From a virus, in the UHGV virus genome UHGV-0208736: a stretch of 31,562 nt of DNA; one strand, written 5' to 3'. The translations under genes were made by a program, and so were the position numbers. The notes beneath the pieces are model-generated. The model worked only from the letters and a program-made list of their open reading frames with translations. It had not been told where the DNA came from and ran no database searches. Shown here piece after piece: positions 5,020 to 24,489 of this stretch; position 1 is the first letter of the stretch, and each line of letters starts with the position of its first letter.

Positions 5020-5049
5020 TTCTCAATTCCTTATATTGTTGGTGTAGGA

Positions 5050-5334
5050 TTAACTATAATAGTTAGCTATTAGGTCGTCAACCTGTTTAAACGAACCAAC
5101 GACAAAAACATTTGCGCCACGTTTACGCATACGCTCGTGTTCTCGTAACTGGTGCGGGTCAGGTTTCGTGTTTTCGTCTTTCTTCACCTCTACGAACCAG
5201 ACGGTGCCGCCGGGGAGAATTACCAGCAGGTCGGGGGCGCCGGAACGCCCCTCGTACGAAAGTTTACGAACGAGGCCGCCCAGGGCCTCGAATCGCTCTT
5301 TTGCGTATTTCTGTACGCGTCCCTCTTTAGTCAT
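5050..5334 (-). CDS. VRR-NUC domain nuclease (PD-(D/E)xK superfamily)
   Basis: 94 aa; PDLLVI...VWFVEVKK...PHQLREHERMRKRGANVFVV matches VRR-NUC D...E-x-K pattern. Confidence 0.7.
   Translation of the reverse strand: MTKEGRVQKYAKERFEALGGLVRKLSYEGRSGAPDLLVILPGGTVWFVEVKKDENTKPDPHQLREHERMRKRGANVFVVGSFKQVDDLIANYYS
5053..5081 (-). promoter_or_regulatory. sigma70-type promoter P1 (minus strand): -35 TTGACG, 17-nt spacer, -10 TATAGT; contains 20-bp conserved core AACTATAATAGTTAGCTATT (plus 5052-5071)
   Basis: Reverse complement reads TTGACG-N17-TATAGT; the 20-bp core is identical to 11861-11880 and near-identical to 9362-9381; lies at the 3' end of the VRR-NUC gene immediately upstream of gene 4828..5019. 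Confidence 0.5.
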
Positions 5335-5888: not shown

Positions 5889-8148
5889 AACGGTACACCT
5901 CTTCCCCGGCCCATGTTAGTGGGAACCCTTTGGCCCATTCAGGTAATGAGCATAACAGGTCGCCCATCTCTTTAACCGTGTACTCCGGTGTGTCTGGTGT
6001 TTCGGCGACACACTCATCGTGTACGTGAAGTACAATTGGGTAGCCCGCTGCCTCGACCGTCAGGAGTCCGTTGACCAGTAAATCACGGCACAACGCTTGA
6101 ATGATGTTTTCACACAATTTTCCGCCGTGTGTGTACAAAGTCGTCCACTGGCGGGTGGTCTGATTTTCGCCCTGGTATTTAATGCGAACGTTAGTTGTTA
6201 CGCGCCCATCCTCGTCGGTCTCTTTAGTGACGCTTAAACCTATACCAGGGTAGGACATGATGCGCCCAGACGGCAGTTCCACACACAACCACCAACCCGG
6301 CACAAAGTTACCCTGTCTGTCTTTCTCTTTAGTACGCCAGATGCGAATAGCCCTGTCGCCGTTAAGGCGTACTCTGGCCCCCGCCCAAAACTCTCGTCCC
6401 GGATTTCTGATTGCAGCAATCACCGAATCCTTAAGGTCGTTCCAGAATCTCACTGTTTCCGGATGGGCCTCGCGCCACATGCGCTTGATAGCGTCGCAAG
6501 TGCGCCAGACTTCCTTAGGCAACACGTAAGAGGCCCGTTCGTCCTTTTTACCAGGTTTTGGCGGCCGCTTAGCCTCCTGAATCCGCGCCCATTCATAGCC
6601 TCGGGCAGTGGCGGCCCATATATGGTCAGGGAATGTCCCCCGCATTGTCTCCGTCATTTTAAAGAGGTCCAGCCCATAAGTTTTAGCCATAGTCATGAAG
6701 GCCCCTACACCTCCCTCGTAGCCGAGGCCCAGCTCGCAACATTTCCCGACCTGTCGTAGGTCTTTACGGGTGGCTTTCAGCTCTATAGGATCCATGCCAA
6801 ACATCTTGCCCGCAGTGGCGCAATAAATATCAATCCCCGCGCGGAACGTCTCAAGGGCAGATGTCTCCCCCGCCGTCCAGGCTAACCCACGGCCTTCCAC
6901 GTTCGAGTAGTCGGCAACGAGTAACTTATTACCTTTTTCCGGGATGATGCAGCTGCGGACAGTCGAGGCCGTTAGCTTAGATACATCAAAACGGCGATGC
7001 GCCCGGCCCTTTAAAAGCAAATTGATGCCGAAGGATAGCGGGTTAAGCCTGCGGTTCCAGTCTTCGTCGGACTCCCACGGCTGGCGTACGAGTTTCTTTT
7101 CCTCGTTAGTCGGGTCGTCGTGGTAGTACCCACGCGACAGGTTCTGCGGCTGGAACCCTTTGCCCGCAAATCGTAAAGTGCGCTTTGCCCCACCGTACTG
7201 GATGCAACCACGGCGTCGTCCGTCTTTGGACCGTCCTAGCAGGAGCGGTTTATATTTTGTTGACGCCGTGGAGGCCGCGCCGAGGCGCATCTCAATGATT
7301 GTGCGCGCATCGTTAGGTAAGTCGTCGTCCTCTAGCAAACCTTCGAGCGTTGCTTTCTGCGCATTATAAATATTGTAGGCCGGTGCCAGTTCCCGAAGGA
7401 TTGGCAGGAAGTCTTTGCCCGTTAGCTTCCCGCCAAATTTCGCGCGGGCCTCGTTTTTTAGCTCTTGCTTGTGACGTTCAACTGCCGCGACCGCCGCCTC
7501 AGCAAGAGCCGTATCGACAAAGAAGCCTCGGTCGTTGATTAGCTGGTCCAGTTCCAGTACACGGTCTTCGAACTCAGAGTTACCCCAACGCGGCAGCTTA
7601 TGGAAGACCTCACGCATTGCAGTGATGTCGCTTACGGCGTACTTGATGAACAGCGCCCACTCGTCCGGGTGTGTTTCCGCGGTGTAGCGACGGATTTTGT
7701 AGTTCTTCGGCGTCGGTTTAGAGAAACGCTGAATCAGCGCCTTGCCCCGCTTATCTTTCGCGTTGTCCGCAGATACTCCCAGCACTTCGCATAATGCATC
7801 GAGTGAACCCGGCAGCGCGTGGCGAAACGCCCAAATCATCGTATCAATGGTGTTGCTTACCGGAATATCAAAACCCCAGCAGTGCTTCATGATGAGCCTA
7901 TCGAACATTAAAAAGTTATGGCCCACGATTTTCATACGTCCGCGCATAACATTACGGAGCGCCATGCGTAGGCTTATTGGCATTACTGGTTCGGAAGTGC
8001 AATCCCATACTTCTACTGGACCATCATCAACGGCATACGTACAAATTATAACCTCTGTCGTTGGGTGCTCCGCATACGCATACGACCCGACTTTCTTTAA
8101 GTCTGCTTCGGAGAATGTCTCGGTATCCAGGTATAATAAACTAGTCAT
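5878..8148 (-). CDS. DNA polymerase, family A, with N-terminal 3'-5' exonuclease domain
   Basis: 756 aa; Exo I motif YLDTETFS; polymerase motif A LLVADYSNVEGR; motif C VLHVHDECV; AAGGAA SD upstream of ATG 8148. Confidence 0.85.
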   Translation of the reverse strand: MTSLLYLDTETFSEADLKKVGSYAYAEHPTTEVIICTYAVDDGPVEVWDCTSEPVMPISLRMALRNVMRGRMKIVGHNFLMFDRLIMKHCWGFDIPVSNTIDTMIWAFRHALPGSLDALCEVLGVSADNAKDKRGKALIQRFSKPTPKNYKIRRYTAETHPDEWALFIKYAVSDITAMREVFHKLPRWGNSEFEDRVLELDQLINDRGFFVDTALAEAAVAAVERHKQELKNEARAKFGGKLTGKDFLPILRELAPAYNIYNAQKATLEGLLEDDDLPNDARTIIEMRLGAASTASTKYKPLLLGRSKDGRRRGCIQYGGAKRTLRFAGKGFQPQNLSRGYYHDDPTNEEKKLVRQPWESDEDWNRRLNPLSFGINLLLKGRAHRRFDVSKLTASTVRSCIIPEKGNKLLVADYSNVEGRGLAWTAGETSALETFRAGIDIYCATAGKMFGMDPIELKATRKDLRQVGKCCELGLGYEGGVGAFMTMAKTYGLDLFKMTETMRGTFPDHIWAATARGYEWARIQEAKRPPKPGKKDERASYVLPKEVWRTCDAIKRMWREAHPETVRFWNDLKDSVIAAIRNPGREFWAGARVRLNGDRAIRIWRTKEKDRQGNFVPGWWLCVELPSGRIMSYPGIGLSVTKETDEDGRVTTNVRIKYQGENQTTRQWTTLYTHGGKLCENIIQALCRDLLVNGLLTVEAAGYPIVLHVHDECVAETPDTPEYTVKEMGDLLCSLPEWAKGFPLTWAGEEVYRYAK

Positions 8149-9362: not shown

Positions 9363-9392
9363 ACTATAATAGCTAACTATTCGGGTTGTCAA
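9363..9392 (-). promoter_or_regulatory. sigma70-type promoter P2 (minus strand): -35 TTGACA, 18-nt spacer, -10 TATAGT; core AACTATAATAGCTAACTATT (plus 9362-9381)
   Basis: Reverse complement reads TTGACA-N18-TATAGT; the core differs from P1/P3 only by inversion of the central 4 bp; located in the 89-bp intergenic gap upstream of the SSB-like gene. Confidence 0.5.
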
Positions 9393-11830: not shown

Positions 11831-11861
11831 TTGTTTCTCTCCTCTCGTTTGGTATGGGCTA

Positions 11862-11890
11862 ACTATAATAGTTAGCTATTCACATGTCAA
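11862..11890 (-). promoter_or_regulatory. sigma70-type promoter P3 (minus strand): -35 TTGACA, 17-nt spacer, -10 TATAGT; core AACTATAATAGTTAGCTATT (plus 11861-11880)
   Basis: Reverse complement reads TTGACA-N17-TATAGT; 20-bp core identical to P1; about 30 nt upstream of the early operon start codon. Confidence 0.55.
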
Positions 11891-11934
11891 TGGGCTTTTC
11901 TAAAATAATTAATATGGTACTATTCACATATCAA
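11876..11934 (+). promoter_or_regulatory. candidate plus-strand promoter (TTCACA-N16-TAAAAT) with two 15-bp direct repeats CTATTCACAT(G/A)TCAA as putative operator sites
   Basis: Repeats at 11876-11890 and 11920-11934 (14/15 identical, 44 bp apart); repeat 1 overlaps the -35 of both divergent promoters; repeat 2 lies between the predicted TSS and the SD of the HTH gene. Confidence 0.35.
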
Positions 11935-11954
11935 CTGACTAAGGAGTAATTGAC

Positions 11955-12170
11955 ATGCAACCATCTGAACTAGGCATCCGTGTAGAACAACGCCGTAAAG
12001 AACTCGGCCTCTCCCAGCGCCGTCTGGCTGTCCTGGCTGGCGTTTCCCAGGGCGCGATTAACCAGCTGGCACTCGGTGTAACCCAGGACGTCCGCCCGGC
12101 AACGCTGTTTAAACTGGCGGAAGTGCTGGAAGTAGATGCCAAGTGGCTGGCGTTCGGTGAAGGGGCTTAA
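11955..12170 (+). CDS. Cro/C1-type (XRE family) helix-turn-helix transcriptional regulator
   Basis: 71 aa; RKELGLSQRRLAVLAGVSQGAINQLALG is a canonical XRE HTH; SD AAGGAG 8 nt upstream; only plus-strand gene inside the minus-strand module. Confidence 0.75.
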   Translation: MQPSELGIRVEQRRKELGLSQRRLAVLAGVSQGAINQLALGVTQDVRPATLFKLAEVLEVDAKWLAFGEGA

Positions 12171-12186
12171 CGCCCCCTTTCTTTTT
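12162..12186 (+). terminator. rho-independent terminator after the HTH regulator gene
   Basis: GGGGC-TTAAC-GCCCC hairpin (stop codon within loop) followed by CTTTCTTTTT. Confidence 0.5.
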
Positions 12187-14625: not shown

Positions 14626-14859
14626 CTAGCGTTGGGGTTTCTTTTGCCTACGTGCAGCATTAATCCACTCTCCTTCGCTCTGGTAGAAACTGCAATCAAG
14701 AATATCCTCTATAGAAAATTTAACTATTTTAGTGGGTCCACAAAAGTTATAAGGGAAAAGTTCTACATAACACCCATCGTCAGTTATATTTGACGCAATC
14801 TTGAAATAATATTTAACGCTGCCGTCTTCACGGAAGCTACAACCCATACGCCCAATCAT
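14626..14859 (-). CDS. hypothetical protein (77 aa), AT-rich gene
   Basis: ORF with ATG overlapping stop of the upstream HTH gene; markedly lower GC than flanking genes. Confidence 0.45.
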   Translation of the reverse strand: MIGRMGCSFREDGSVKYYFKIASNITDDGCYVELFPYNFCGPTKIVKFSIEDILDCSFYQSEGEWINAARRQKKPQR

Positions 14860-15026
14860 TTCACGTTCTCCTTAATCCACGCTTCAACTTTATTACGGTC
14901 AAATGTTCCCGGCATCCGGCGGCCCATTACTTTAACGCTGCAATCAGGAAACTTTCCACTCTTAATCCAGTTATTAATTGTCTGACGCGTCACCCCGATA
15001 CGTTCTGCAACTTCATTGATAGTCAT
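14856..15026 (-). CDS. unannotated AlpA/excisionase-type helix-turn-helix regulator (56 aa), first gene of the primase operon
   Basis: MTINEVAERIGVTRQTINNWIKSGKFPDCSVKVMGRRMPGTFDRNKVEAWIKENVK; HTH plus conserved W matching the AlpA/Xis-like HTH_17 pattern; SD AGGAGA 5 nt upstream; below track cutoff. Confidence 0.6.
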   Translation of the reverse strand: MTINEVAERIGVTRQTINNWIKSGKFPDCSVKVMGRRMPGTFDRNKVEAWIKENVK

Positions 15027-15131
15027 TTAACGTTCTCCTATGTAAGATGTACCGAAGTATAAGGCGGTAACTTTGTAAAAGCAACCAAAACACCACACAA
15101 AGTTACTAAGATACAAAAGATGCTACTGGTA

Positions 15132-15160
15132 TTGACTTTTACTAAGAAATATGGTAAGCT
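15132..15160 (+). promoter_or_regulatory. candidate late promoter: -35 TTGACT, 17-nt spacer, extended -10 TGgTAAGCT
   Basis: Seen directly in sequence; lies in the 360-bp gap between the divergent early and late modules. Confidence 0.45.
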
Positions 15161-15340
15161 CAGCCTGAGCTTGTGAAGTATGAACAAGCGACCGCGGCGC
15201 GGGCAGGTAACGGAGCGGGACGTAAGTCCTGAGTGTAGTTACGCTGACGCGTTCGGAAGGGCCATACTCTATTGCTTGTGTAAAAAGTAACTGGTTTACT
15301 GAGATTACGCCGTTTCTATGTTTAAATGATAAGGACTAGC

Positions 15341-15368
15341 GCCCCGCTTTAAGGCGGGGCTTTACTTA
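15341..15368 (+). terminator. intrinsic terminator at the end of a ~200-nt leader, 18 nt upstream of the first late gene
   Basis: GCCCCGC-TTTAAG-GCGGGGC hairpin followed by TTTACTTATC; located between the promoter at 15132-15160 and the SD of the i-spanin gene. Confidence 0.55.
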
Positions 15369-15385
15369 TCGAGAAAGGGGGAAAC

Positions 15386-15772
15386 ATGAATCTTAAAGCA
15401 ACTGTCGTAGCAGGAGCATGTTTCATCATCCTGGCTTACGCACACGGCATCTACCAGTATCGCAGCGGCTGGAACGAAGGCCGGGCGAATCTCGTTTCGC
15501 AGCAACAGCAGAAAGCACAGGCCGAGTTAGCGAAGAAAACACAACGGCAGCAGCAGAACGAATCGAAGGCTGCAGCCGCTGACATCGAAGGCAAGACGAA
15601 ATCAGAGGTGATTACCCGTGAAGTCGTTAAGTACATTAAAACGCCTGGTCGCAGCGTGTGCACTTTCGATGATGCTCGCGTCCTGCTCAAGTCCCGCGCC
15701 GTCGCAAACGCCAATTCCATCCCCGGATACGACGATGATGCAGCCGCCGTGCAAACTGGCCGCGCCAAGTAG
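15386..15772 (+). CDS. i-spanin (Rz-like inner-membrane spanin subunit)
   Basis: 128 aa; N-terminal TM segment ATVVAGACFIILAYAHGIY followed by Gln/Lys/Ala-rich coiled-coil periplasmic domain; strong SD GAGAAAGGGGG; contains embedded o-spanin gene in another frame. Confidence 0.6.
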   Translation: MNLKATVVAGACFIILAYAHGIYQYRSGWNEGRANLVSQQQQKAQAELAKKTQRQQQNESKAAAADIEGKTKSEVITREVVKYIKTPGRSVCTFDDARVLLKSRAVANANSIPGYDDDAAAVQTGRAK

Positions 15773-15881: not shown

Positions 15882-15963
15882 TTGCCTTGCATGTTGGAAT
15901 AATTTATTCTTGACATGTAAATCCGGGTGGCCCGGATTCCAACGTCCAGGGGACATACTGACT

Positions 15964-24415: not shown

Positions 24416-24432
24416 TTTAAACCCCTTCATTG

Positions 24433-24489
24433 TTGGTGTAAGTGAATAGTACCCTATTATATTGGGGTGCGCAAGTAATGTGATAGAAT
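24433..24489. promoter_or_regulatory. divergent promoter region: plus-strand TTGGTG-N16-TATTAT and TTGGGG-N16-TAGAAT; minus-strand TATAAT (plus 24456-24461) for the accessory island
   Basis: Seen directly; located in the 167-bp gap between the island and the tail chaperone gene; the minus -35 (ATCACA) is weak. Confidence 0.35.

Follow-up and report, generated by a model that had tools for sequence, protein, structure and literature searches.

What does a Cro-like regulator control in a phage that is regarded as strictly virulent? This question is raised by positions 11,831 to 12,186 of UHGV virus genome UHGV-0208736, a DNA of 31,562 nucleotides (nt) which was analysed at its full length and is referred to here as the window. 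The region belongs to Kagunavirus (Guernseyvirinae), with 90-93% identity to phages such as RP180, fTaEco03 and Schulenburg in megablast searches, and contains a small gene whose product resembles 434 Cro. The initial annotation had drawn attention to two 15-bp direct repeats upstream of this gene, CTATTCACAT(G/A)TCAA, and had proposed that they serve an autoregulatory repressor which could shut off early transcription. Here we describe a 14-bp palindrome, AATAG-N4-CTATT, which overlaps these repeats, is conserved beside the gene and recurs at other promoters of the genome, and for which the Cro-like protein is a candidate reader.

The Cro-like gene and the palindrome beside it

The assignment of the gene product to the XRE/Cro-type helix-turn-helix (HTH) regulators in the initial annotation is borne out. 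The protein of 71 amino acids (aa) matches Pfam HTH_3 with an E value of 1.3e-12 (48 bits, with a gathering cut-off of 23 bits), and its best sequence match in the PDB is 434 Cro (1zug, E=3.9e-7), followed by the 434 repressor. An AlphaFold2 model (predicted local distance difference test score 80) contains five helices (residues 5-17, 21-28, 32-39, 48-57, and 62-66). The top Foldseek matches of this model are 2cro, 1pra and 3cro with template modelling scores of 0.73-0.80, and HipB, SinR, C-proteins (ranks 12-15) and P22 c2, all dimeric proteins that bind dyad sites, are found among the further matches. By sequence and predicted fold, the 71-aa protein is a 434-Cro-type HTH regulator, and a 14-bp dyad is the kind of site expected for such a protein. 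The features of the locus are listed below, with promoters and terminator as predicted.

11890-11862, minus strand: leftward promoter P_L, TTGACA-17-TATAGT (11/12, joint best in the window)
11867-11880, unstranded: site O1, perfect palindrome AATAG-TTAG-CTATT in the P_L spacer (about -25 to -12)
11876-11890, plus strand: repeat 1, consisting of the O1 right half-site CTATT, four variable bases and the leftward -35 read backwards (TGTCAA)
11879-11906, plus strand: alternative rightward promoter assumed by the initial annotation, TTCACA-16-TAAAAT (10/12 in the scan)
11911-11924, unstranded: site O2, AATAT-GGTA-CTATT, one mismatch, over the -10/start of the Cro-like gene's own candidate promoter
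11915-11923, plus strand: candidate promoter for the Cro-like gene, an extended -10 (TGg-TACTAT) lacking a -35 hexamer
11920-11934, plus strand: repeat 2, consisting of the O2 right half-site and the start region of the Cro-like transcript
11941-11946, plus strand: Shine-Dalgarno sequence AAGGAG of the Cro-like gene
11955-12170, plus strand: Cro-like HTH gene, an open reading frame (ORF) of 71 aa encoding the single-domain 434-Cro-type regulator
12159-12186, plus strand: intrinsic terminator of the Cro-like gene (terminator scan; annotated in Schulenburg)

Conservation was assessed in 36 distinct Kagunavirus versions of the intergenic region, comprising the window and IMG/VR contigs that were found via the protein. 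None of the ten half-site columns of O1 or of O2 contains a variant, whereas the N4 centre of O1 (11872-11875) is variable, with deviating bases in 6, 12, 0, and 3 sequences at its successive positions. Between the leftward ribosome-binding site and the ATG, the sequence is nearly invariant, and at least six different, unrelated first genes follow P_L among the Kagunavirus contigs, which together suggest a conserved control cassette at a mosaic recombination junction. The boundary of this cassette coincides exactly with the leftward gene's ribosome-binding site (11831-11845 in the window; relatives L002-L038).

The paired 15-mers are present where the initial annotation had placed them (CTATTCACATGTCAA and CTATTCACATATCAA, identical at 14 of 15 positions and 44 bp apart from start to start), repeat 1 covering both divergent -35 hexamers and repeat 2 lying downstream of the rightward TAAAAT -10. 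A direct repeat of 15 nt with at most one mismatch appeared in the 124-bp intergenic region in 10 of 5000 first-order Markov simulations and in 0 of 5000 mononucleotide shuffles. As a conserved unit, however, the 15-mer did not hold up. In repeat 1, CTATTCA and TGTCAA are fixed in the relatives, but the bases between them vary: positions 11883-11884 differ from the majority base in 12 and 19 of the 36 sequences, and a 1-nt insertion is found in 16 of them, making this the most variable spot of the intergenic region. As this spot falls at the centre of repeat 1, conservation does not extend to the 15-mer as a whole; near-identity over the full 15 nt is largely specific to this window, and what stays is AATAG-N4-CTATT. 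Each 15-mer starts at the right half-site of one dyad, repeat 1 at that of O1 and repeat 2 at that of O2. Read on the minus strand, repeat 2 gives TTGATA-TGTG-AATAG..., a degenerate form of the P_L layout which the scan scored as TTGATA-18-AATTAT (9/12).

The distance between O1 and O2 is 44 bp, compared to 55 bp for the counterpart pair in SE2 and 64 bp for that in Shemara. These spacings correspond to 4.2, 5.2, and 6.1 helical turns; they are roughly in phase, a regularity which is not statistically meaningful but is compatible with cooperative occupancy.

Other symmetrical elements of the locus were considered and rejected. The 19-bp perfect palindrome GCTAACTATAATAGTTAGC (11858-11876) is specific to the window, its right arm lying on the variable N4 of O1, where AGCGAAC or AGCTAAC is found in most relatives. 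The inverted repeat CATGTCAAT/ATTGACATG (11883-11891 and 11949-11957) falls on the variable positions 11883-4, 11950 and 11953, and compensating changes are not seen. For a hairpin or dyad round the ribosome-binding site (CATATCAA...TTGACATG; in SE2 ATTACTGCATAT...ATATGCAGCAAT), most Jerseyviruses have ACTACATAT while the partner is unchanged, the 3' arm is lost in contig L038, and the leader RNA of the Cro-like gene folds no better than shuffles (z=+1.2).

The palindrome at other promoters

The exact palindrome AATAG-N4-CTATT occurs four times in the window (5058, 9368, 11867, and 24445), compared to 0.017 occurrences expected from Markov simulations. With terminator hairpins set aside, it ranked first in an unbiased enumeration of gapped palindromes, in the window as well as in Schulenburg. 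Complete relatives contain seven (Schulenburg) and six (K1ind2) exact copies, plus a one-mismatch copy at the Cro-like gene. All five copies in the window (the four exact ones and O2) lie on predicted sigma-70-type promoters, and among the sigma-70 matches in the first 16 kb of the window, the top three are precisely the three palindrome-bearing leftward promoters. Besides P_L, the predicted promoters with an exact copy are as follows.

5053-5081, minus strand: leftward promoter TTGACG-17-TATAGT, exact palindrome AATAGTTAGCTATT at 5058-5071
9363-9392, minus strand: leftward promoter TTGACA-18-TATAGT upstream of the single-stranded DNA-binding protein gene, exact palindrome AATAGCTAACTATT at 9368-9381
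24445-24474, minus strand: leftward promoter TTGCGC-17-TACTAT upstream of a superinfection-immunity-like gene cluster, exact palindrome at 24445-24458 over the -10

The position of the dyad relative to the core promoter follows three layouts. In type I, TTGAC(A/G)-N4/5-[AATAG-N4-CTAT]TATAGT, the dyad occupies about -25 to -12; this layout is found at 5058, 9368 and 11867, three strong leftward promoters predicted to drive replication genes. In type II, TTGC(A/G)C-N10-[AATAG-GA-TACTAT-T], it lies at about -19 to -6, as at 24445 in the window and at 6184, 15289, 38192, and 39117 in Schulenburg, where 15289 is the ortholog of the 24445 site. Type III places the dyad over a TTGACT -35 (Schulenburg 42474 and SE2 15716, with one mismatch each). 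Across genomes the N4 of orthologous sites differs and the half-sites persist; at the 5058 site the centre is variable in relatives and the half-sites are mostly kept. Orthologous promoters and their N4 variation were recovered with a scan of viral contigs for AATAG-N4-CTATTATAGT, which is circular with respect to half-site conservation and was used only for this purpose. Fixed half-sites around a free centre are the conservation pattern of a dimer site, and three registers with respect to the core promoter are typical of a repressor operator and not of a polymerase element or of an activator or antiterminator site with fixed geometry. The sequence pattern thus suggests that the AATAG-N4-CTATT dyad is very probably a repressor operator.

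The layouts also bear on the promoter of the Cro-like gene itself. That this gene has its own promoter and terminator, as the initial annotation had stated, agrees with consensus and terminator scans, which predicted both at the expected place. Two candidates were considered for the promoter. O2 aligns base for base with the type II promoters (AATATGGTACTATTCAC compared to AATAGGGTACTATTCAC at 24442-24458), which points to TACTAT (11918-11923) as the -10 of the Cro-like gene. The T at 11915, in place of G, breaks the O2 palindrome and creates the extended -10 TGG-TACTAT; T11915 and G11916 are invariant in the 36 relatives, variation being confined to the 'n' position, 11917. In Jerseyvirus, this TACTAT is combined with a conventional -35 (TTGCGT-17-TACTAT). 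The TTCACA -35 of the alternative promoter sits on the variable, indel-bearing positions 11883-11884 and is therefore less conserved than TGnTACTAT. With either promoter O2 spans the -10 or the start site, so that its occupancy would repress the Cro-like gene. P_L is predicted to drive the gene of the divergent 156-aa protein and the downstream replication genes; both of its hexamers are invariant in relatives, and the same architecture is found in Jerseyvirus and Cornellvirus.

As a separate observation, the first transcribed bases at the palindrome promoters share a (C)ACACCAAC or ATACCAAAC-like motif (minus strand, 11848-11856, 5025-5040, and 24425-24440), and its counterpart in SE2 and Shemara is ATCACCAAC.

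Which protein would read the palindrome

The palindrome is the same in Kagunavirus of E. coli and Jerseyvirus of Salmonella and differs in Cornellvirus of Salmonella. The motif thus tracks the phage lineage and not the host, which argues against a host factor. Within the window there is one other predicted DNA-binding protein besides the Cro-like one, encoded by the first gene of the leftward early operon:

14856-15026, minus strand: HTH_17 (excisionase/MerR-like) ORF, 56 aa (Pfam HTH_17, E=1.3e-9; PHROG 66); no copy of AATAG-N4-CTATT in its putative promoter region (15028-15130)

The Cro-like gene is present in all three genera, and the HTH_17 gene is present in Kagunavirus and Jerseyvirus and absent from Cornellvirus. 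Cornellvirus has a related element, tATTAG-N4-(G/A)TA(T/A)TA, at the same promoter positions, including the one beside the Cro-like gene. In addition, the weaker copy of the palindrome on the gene's own promoter, with an invariant mismatch that makes the TGn extended -10, counts for an autoregulatory role. Given that the dyad is an operator, sequence comparison marginally favours the Cro-like protein as the one that would bind it.

Several observations weigh against the Cro-like protein as the reader. The recognition helix of the Cro-like protein reads SQGAINQ in Kagunavirus and SQSLITH in Jerseyvirus, with four exposed positions changed, and the motif is the same; the helices of Jerseyvirus and Cornellvirus are similar, and the motifs differ by about one base per half-site. 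Across the three genera there is consequently no clean covariation of protein and operator. The exact palindrome was found only where the HTH_17 gene occurs, the Cornellvirus element is only partly symmetric, and both Jerseyvirus sites beside the Cro-like gene are imperfect (AATCG at P_L and ATTAC at its own promoter). As the CTATT half-site overlaps -10-like sequence (TACTAT, CTAT+TATAGT), part of the conservation could be due to promoter constraint. A search of the literature found no work on transcriptomics or start-site mapping in Kagunavirus or Jerseyvirus.

The shared distribution of the exact palindrome and the HTH_17 gene leads to the alternative that the palindromes are operators of the 56-aa protein, or of a small protein that was not recognised among the many small ORFs of this genome without assigned function, and that the Cro-like protein has its targets elsewhere, for example in host genes or at a site that was not recognised. 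It would also fit that HTH_17 is 79% identical between Kagunavirus and Jerseyvirus, in contrast to only about 50% for the Cro-like protein with its altered recognition helix. We nevertheless consider this alternative unlikely. The 56-aa HTH_17/excisionase-type domain has no evident dimerisation element, whereas the site is a dyad. In K1ind2, the HTH_17 protein is only 62% identical and its recognition helix is strongly diverged (GVSPMTLNRW compared to GVTRQTINNW), yet the palindromes are unchanged, and Cornellvirus, without HTH_17, still has the related element at the same promoter positions. A variant in which the palindrome is a loading site for HTH_17 as an AlpA/Q-like antiterminator was rejected: AlpA is far larger (its contact residues extend to position 142) and relies on a single fixed site between the -35 and -10 (PMC9371919), whereas the motif here occurs in three registers.

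We give little credence to the possibility that the palindrome is not a regulator site at all but a phage-specific promoter consensus, or sequence inherited via duplicated or shuffled promoter cassettes. The former corresponds to the published view of this element: in the Kagunavirus fBC-Eco01, PHIRE reported seven 'phage RNA polymerase' promoters with the palindrome-containing consensus tgAATAGTa-ccTATTat-T (PMC9825357), which is the same AATAG-N4-CTATT element in seven copies in a related genome. The cassette explanation draws on what the palindrome promoters share beyond the dyad (the -10 TATAGT and the ACACCAAC-like leader), on the mosaic junctions that these promoter regions form, with the different first genes after P_L, and on a repeated promoter which apparently mediated a 13-kb deletion in this contig. 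The element is, however, dyad-symmetric and coincides with good sigma-70 hexamers, and no RNA polymerase gene is annotated in the four complete subfamily genomes of Schulenburg, SE2, Shemara and K1ind2. Simple duplication fails to explain an invariant dyad with a free centre, or its three registers relative to the -35 and -10. To our knowledge, no sigma-70 contact reads a dyad in the promoter spacer.

Least credible, and in our view very improbable, is a strictly local autoregulatory switch on the divergent pair in which the 15-bp repeats as such would be the operators: these repeats are real, above chance, suitably placed over the two -35 hexamers and the gene's leader/-10, and constant in their 44-bp spacing in relatives (because the indel falls inside repeat 1), but the middle of repeat 1 changes in base and in length, its TGTCAA is accounted for as the leftward -35, and single-domain HTH_3 proteins like 434 Cro bind dyad-symmetric sites, of which the 15-mer covers only half. 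A search of the window for the 15-mer with up to three mismatches gave four matches (both repeats, the minus-strand reading of repeat 1 and one three-mismatch match at 15910), a number reached in 4 of 100 shuffles and thus barely above chance, whereas the palindrome recurs at other promoters; the counterpart 15-mers in Jerseyvirus, CTATTATTTATGCAA and CTATTACTACATATC, are unlike each other.

The reading in which a 434-Cro-like dimer binds the palindromes and represses early and middle promoters genome-wide, as well as its own gene via the weaker site, is in our judgement evenly balanced. According to this model, host RNA polymerase would fire all palindrome promoters at infection, and the Cro-like protein would accumulate from its weak extended -10 promoter, which faces convergent leftward transcription. 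The protein would then first fill the perfect dyads, which lie on strong promoters of types I and II, turning off replication and early/middle transcription, and at higher concentration would fill its own imperfect O2, resulting in negative autoregulation. Of the autoregulatory switch proposed in the initial annotation, the overlapping divergent promoters with elements placed to block both are retained; its local character is not, since the palindrome is found at other promoters.

Neighbourhood, known systems and biological meaning

The Cro-like gene is the sole plus-strand gene of the leftward replication module of the window, as noted in the initial annotation, and the arrangement in Schulenburg is the same: genes 035-058 are all on the minus strand, with the exception of 051 ('Cro'). 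Its divergent neighbour, the 156-aa protein, has no Pfam match and belongs to PHROG 3127 (function unassigned). On the plus strand, the terminator hairpin GGGGCTTAACGCCCC is followed by a T-run (12162-12176). There is no T-run after the hairpin on the minus strand, so that the predicted terminator works on the plus strand only and leftward helicase-primase transcripts probably read through the Cro-like gene in antisense. In the Cornellvirus Shemara (L068, 35330-38169), the helicase-primase gene lies downstream of the Cro-like gene on the same strand; in Kagunavirus and Jerseyvirus it has the opposite orientation and is transcribed towards the Cro-like gene.

The initial annotation had regarded such a regulator as unusual in a virulent genome, which is not the case in this subfamily, where about 500 Guernseyvirinae records hold a homologue. 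Homologues were found by tblastn in 506 phage records, with about 117 from Kagunavirus at 90-99% identity, about 350 from Salmonella Jerseyvirus near 51% and those from Cornellvirus at 39%. In records of Guernseyvirinae relatives, the plus-strand gene is labelled 'transcriptional regulator Cro' (as in MK931438), 'transcriptional repressor' or 'DicA' and is followed by an annotated terminator. In SS3e (L065, 1513-1677), the homologue is annotated as a truncated ORF of 165 nt, in which the frame is shifted by an extra C (aaatccggcatgg, compared to aaatcggcatgg in SE2); the record is old and may contain a sequencing error here, or else SS3e may carry a natural frameshift mutation in its Cro-like gene. 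A large protein search added no distant context, since all relatives that it returned were at least 80% identical and on phage-sized contigs, and a literature search for work on phage MB78 promoters yielded nothing usable.

The window is an apparently circular 31.5-kb contig whose first base corresponds to Schulenburg 23381 and whose last base corresponds to 23380. About 13 kb of Schulenburg sequence is missing from it, comprising the early small genes, the lysis cassette, terminase, portal, and the head morphogenesis gene. The junction, at 15132-15207, is a stretch of about 76 bp which matches both Schulenburg 37880-37954 and 6280-6355, and this double match suggests that a deletion or a mis-assembly has joined two copies of a repeated promoter region. 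At 15132-15368 on the plus strand, a strong promoter-like sequence (TTGACT-17-TAAGCT with a TGn extended -10) is followed by about 200 nt of non-coding sequence; a good terminator (15341-15360) closes this stretch immediately before the genes for spanin, scaffold and capsid. In complete relatives, this promoter occurs twice, together with the first ~45 nt of its transcript. The ~200-nt leader folds weakly better than shuffles (z=-1.6). No Rfam family reached its gathering score anywhere in the window, and 15080-15420 gave only a chance-level match on the terminator hairpin. In lambda PR'-tR' and HK022 put, a constitutive short leader RNA needs antitermination, and by analogy the layout of 15132-15368 recalls such a leader.

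Among known systems, 434 Cro is closest. It shares with the protein described here the length of 71 aa and the five-helix HTH_3 fold, being the best match in both sequence and fold (2cro/3cro), and its operators are likewise 14-bp dyads with conserved outer half-sites and a variable centre, located on the core promoters of a divergent region; as in 434, a weaker candidate site on the protein's own promoter suggests autoregulation. Unlike in 434, no divergent CI and no OR1-OR2-OR3 triplet are present and the neighbour is the 156-aa protein; the half-sites are 5 bp around a 4-bp centre and not ACAA-N6-TTGT (4+6+4); and the sites are dispersed over 8-10 promoters, not clustered at one or two control regions, of a phage that is regarded as strictly virulent. 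The locus is therefore not a lambdoid CI-Cro switch: there is no CI neighbour, no tripartite operator (two intergenic dyads, 44 bp apart) and no lysogeny module. No CI repressor is annotated in Schulenburg, SE2 or K1ind2, and no integrase or lysogeny module is annotated in the complete relatives. The nearest relative found outside the subfamily, a protein of Klebsiella phage GZ7 with 45% identity, fills the Cro slot of a lambdoid CI-Cro-CII-O-P module with ACAA-N6-TTGT operators.

The operators of P22 c2/Cro are dyads of the ATTTAAG-N4-CTTAAAT type with a 4-bp non-contacted centre. The present system resembles them in the HTH_3 fold, P22 c2 being among the fold matches, and in the 4-bp centre; it differs in half-site sequence and in that P22 is a temperate immunity system with operators clustered at OL and OR. 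Scattered sites are known from P1 C1, whose operators are distributed over the genome, and from mycobacteriophage L5 gp71 with its many 'stoperators'. The likeness is that of one small repressor, here a candidate, with many sites at or near promoters across a phage genome, but P1 and L5 are temperate and use asymmetric sites for prophage maintenance, whereas here the sites are symmetric and there is no lysogeny module. The controller proteins of restriction-modification systems, C.AhdI and C.BclI, are also small proteins with the HTH_3 fold, and their dimers act as concentration-dependent timers via palindromic boxes at their own promoter; they activate and then repress a single operon, in contrast to the sites at many promoters, without sign of activation, found here.

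The wider proposal that follows from the model can be described as 'Cro without CI': the 71-aa protein would be a genome-wide timer in a large group of strictly virulent siphoviruses, acting through about nine palindromic operators in core promoters, including its own. It would cover Kagunavirus and Jerseyvirus, with a diverged version in Cornellvirus, and nearly all early/middle sigma-70 promoters. We put it forward tentatively and hold it to be slightly on the improbable side. The annotation of the gene was already known, as was the motif under another interpretation; what is new is the link between the two and their reading as a regulon. If true, the published 'phage RNA polymerase promoter' element would be the operator of the Cro-like protein, which would correct the earlier reading, and the protein could silence superinfecting relatives, because the operator is common to E. 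coli and Salmonella genera.

Members of the Guernseyvirinae have widely been put forward for use in therapy and in the biocontrol of food. The papers that describe their genomes name a 'repressor', 'Cro' or 'DicA' and at the same time declare the phage free of lysogeny functions, and no lysogeny genes have been reported for these phages (PMC7203180; PMC9825357). If the proposal is true, a temporal shut-off of early/middle transcription via a defined 14-bp operator would resolve the ambiguity of a repressor in a non-lysogenic phage. For the engineering of these phages, it would also provide a compact pair of repressor and operator together with strong sigma-70 promoters, and it would offer a simple model of transcription timing in a virulent phage that relies on host polymerase only.

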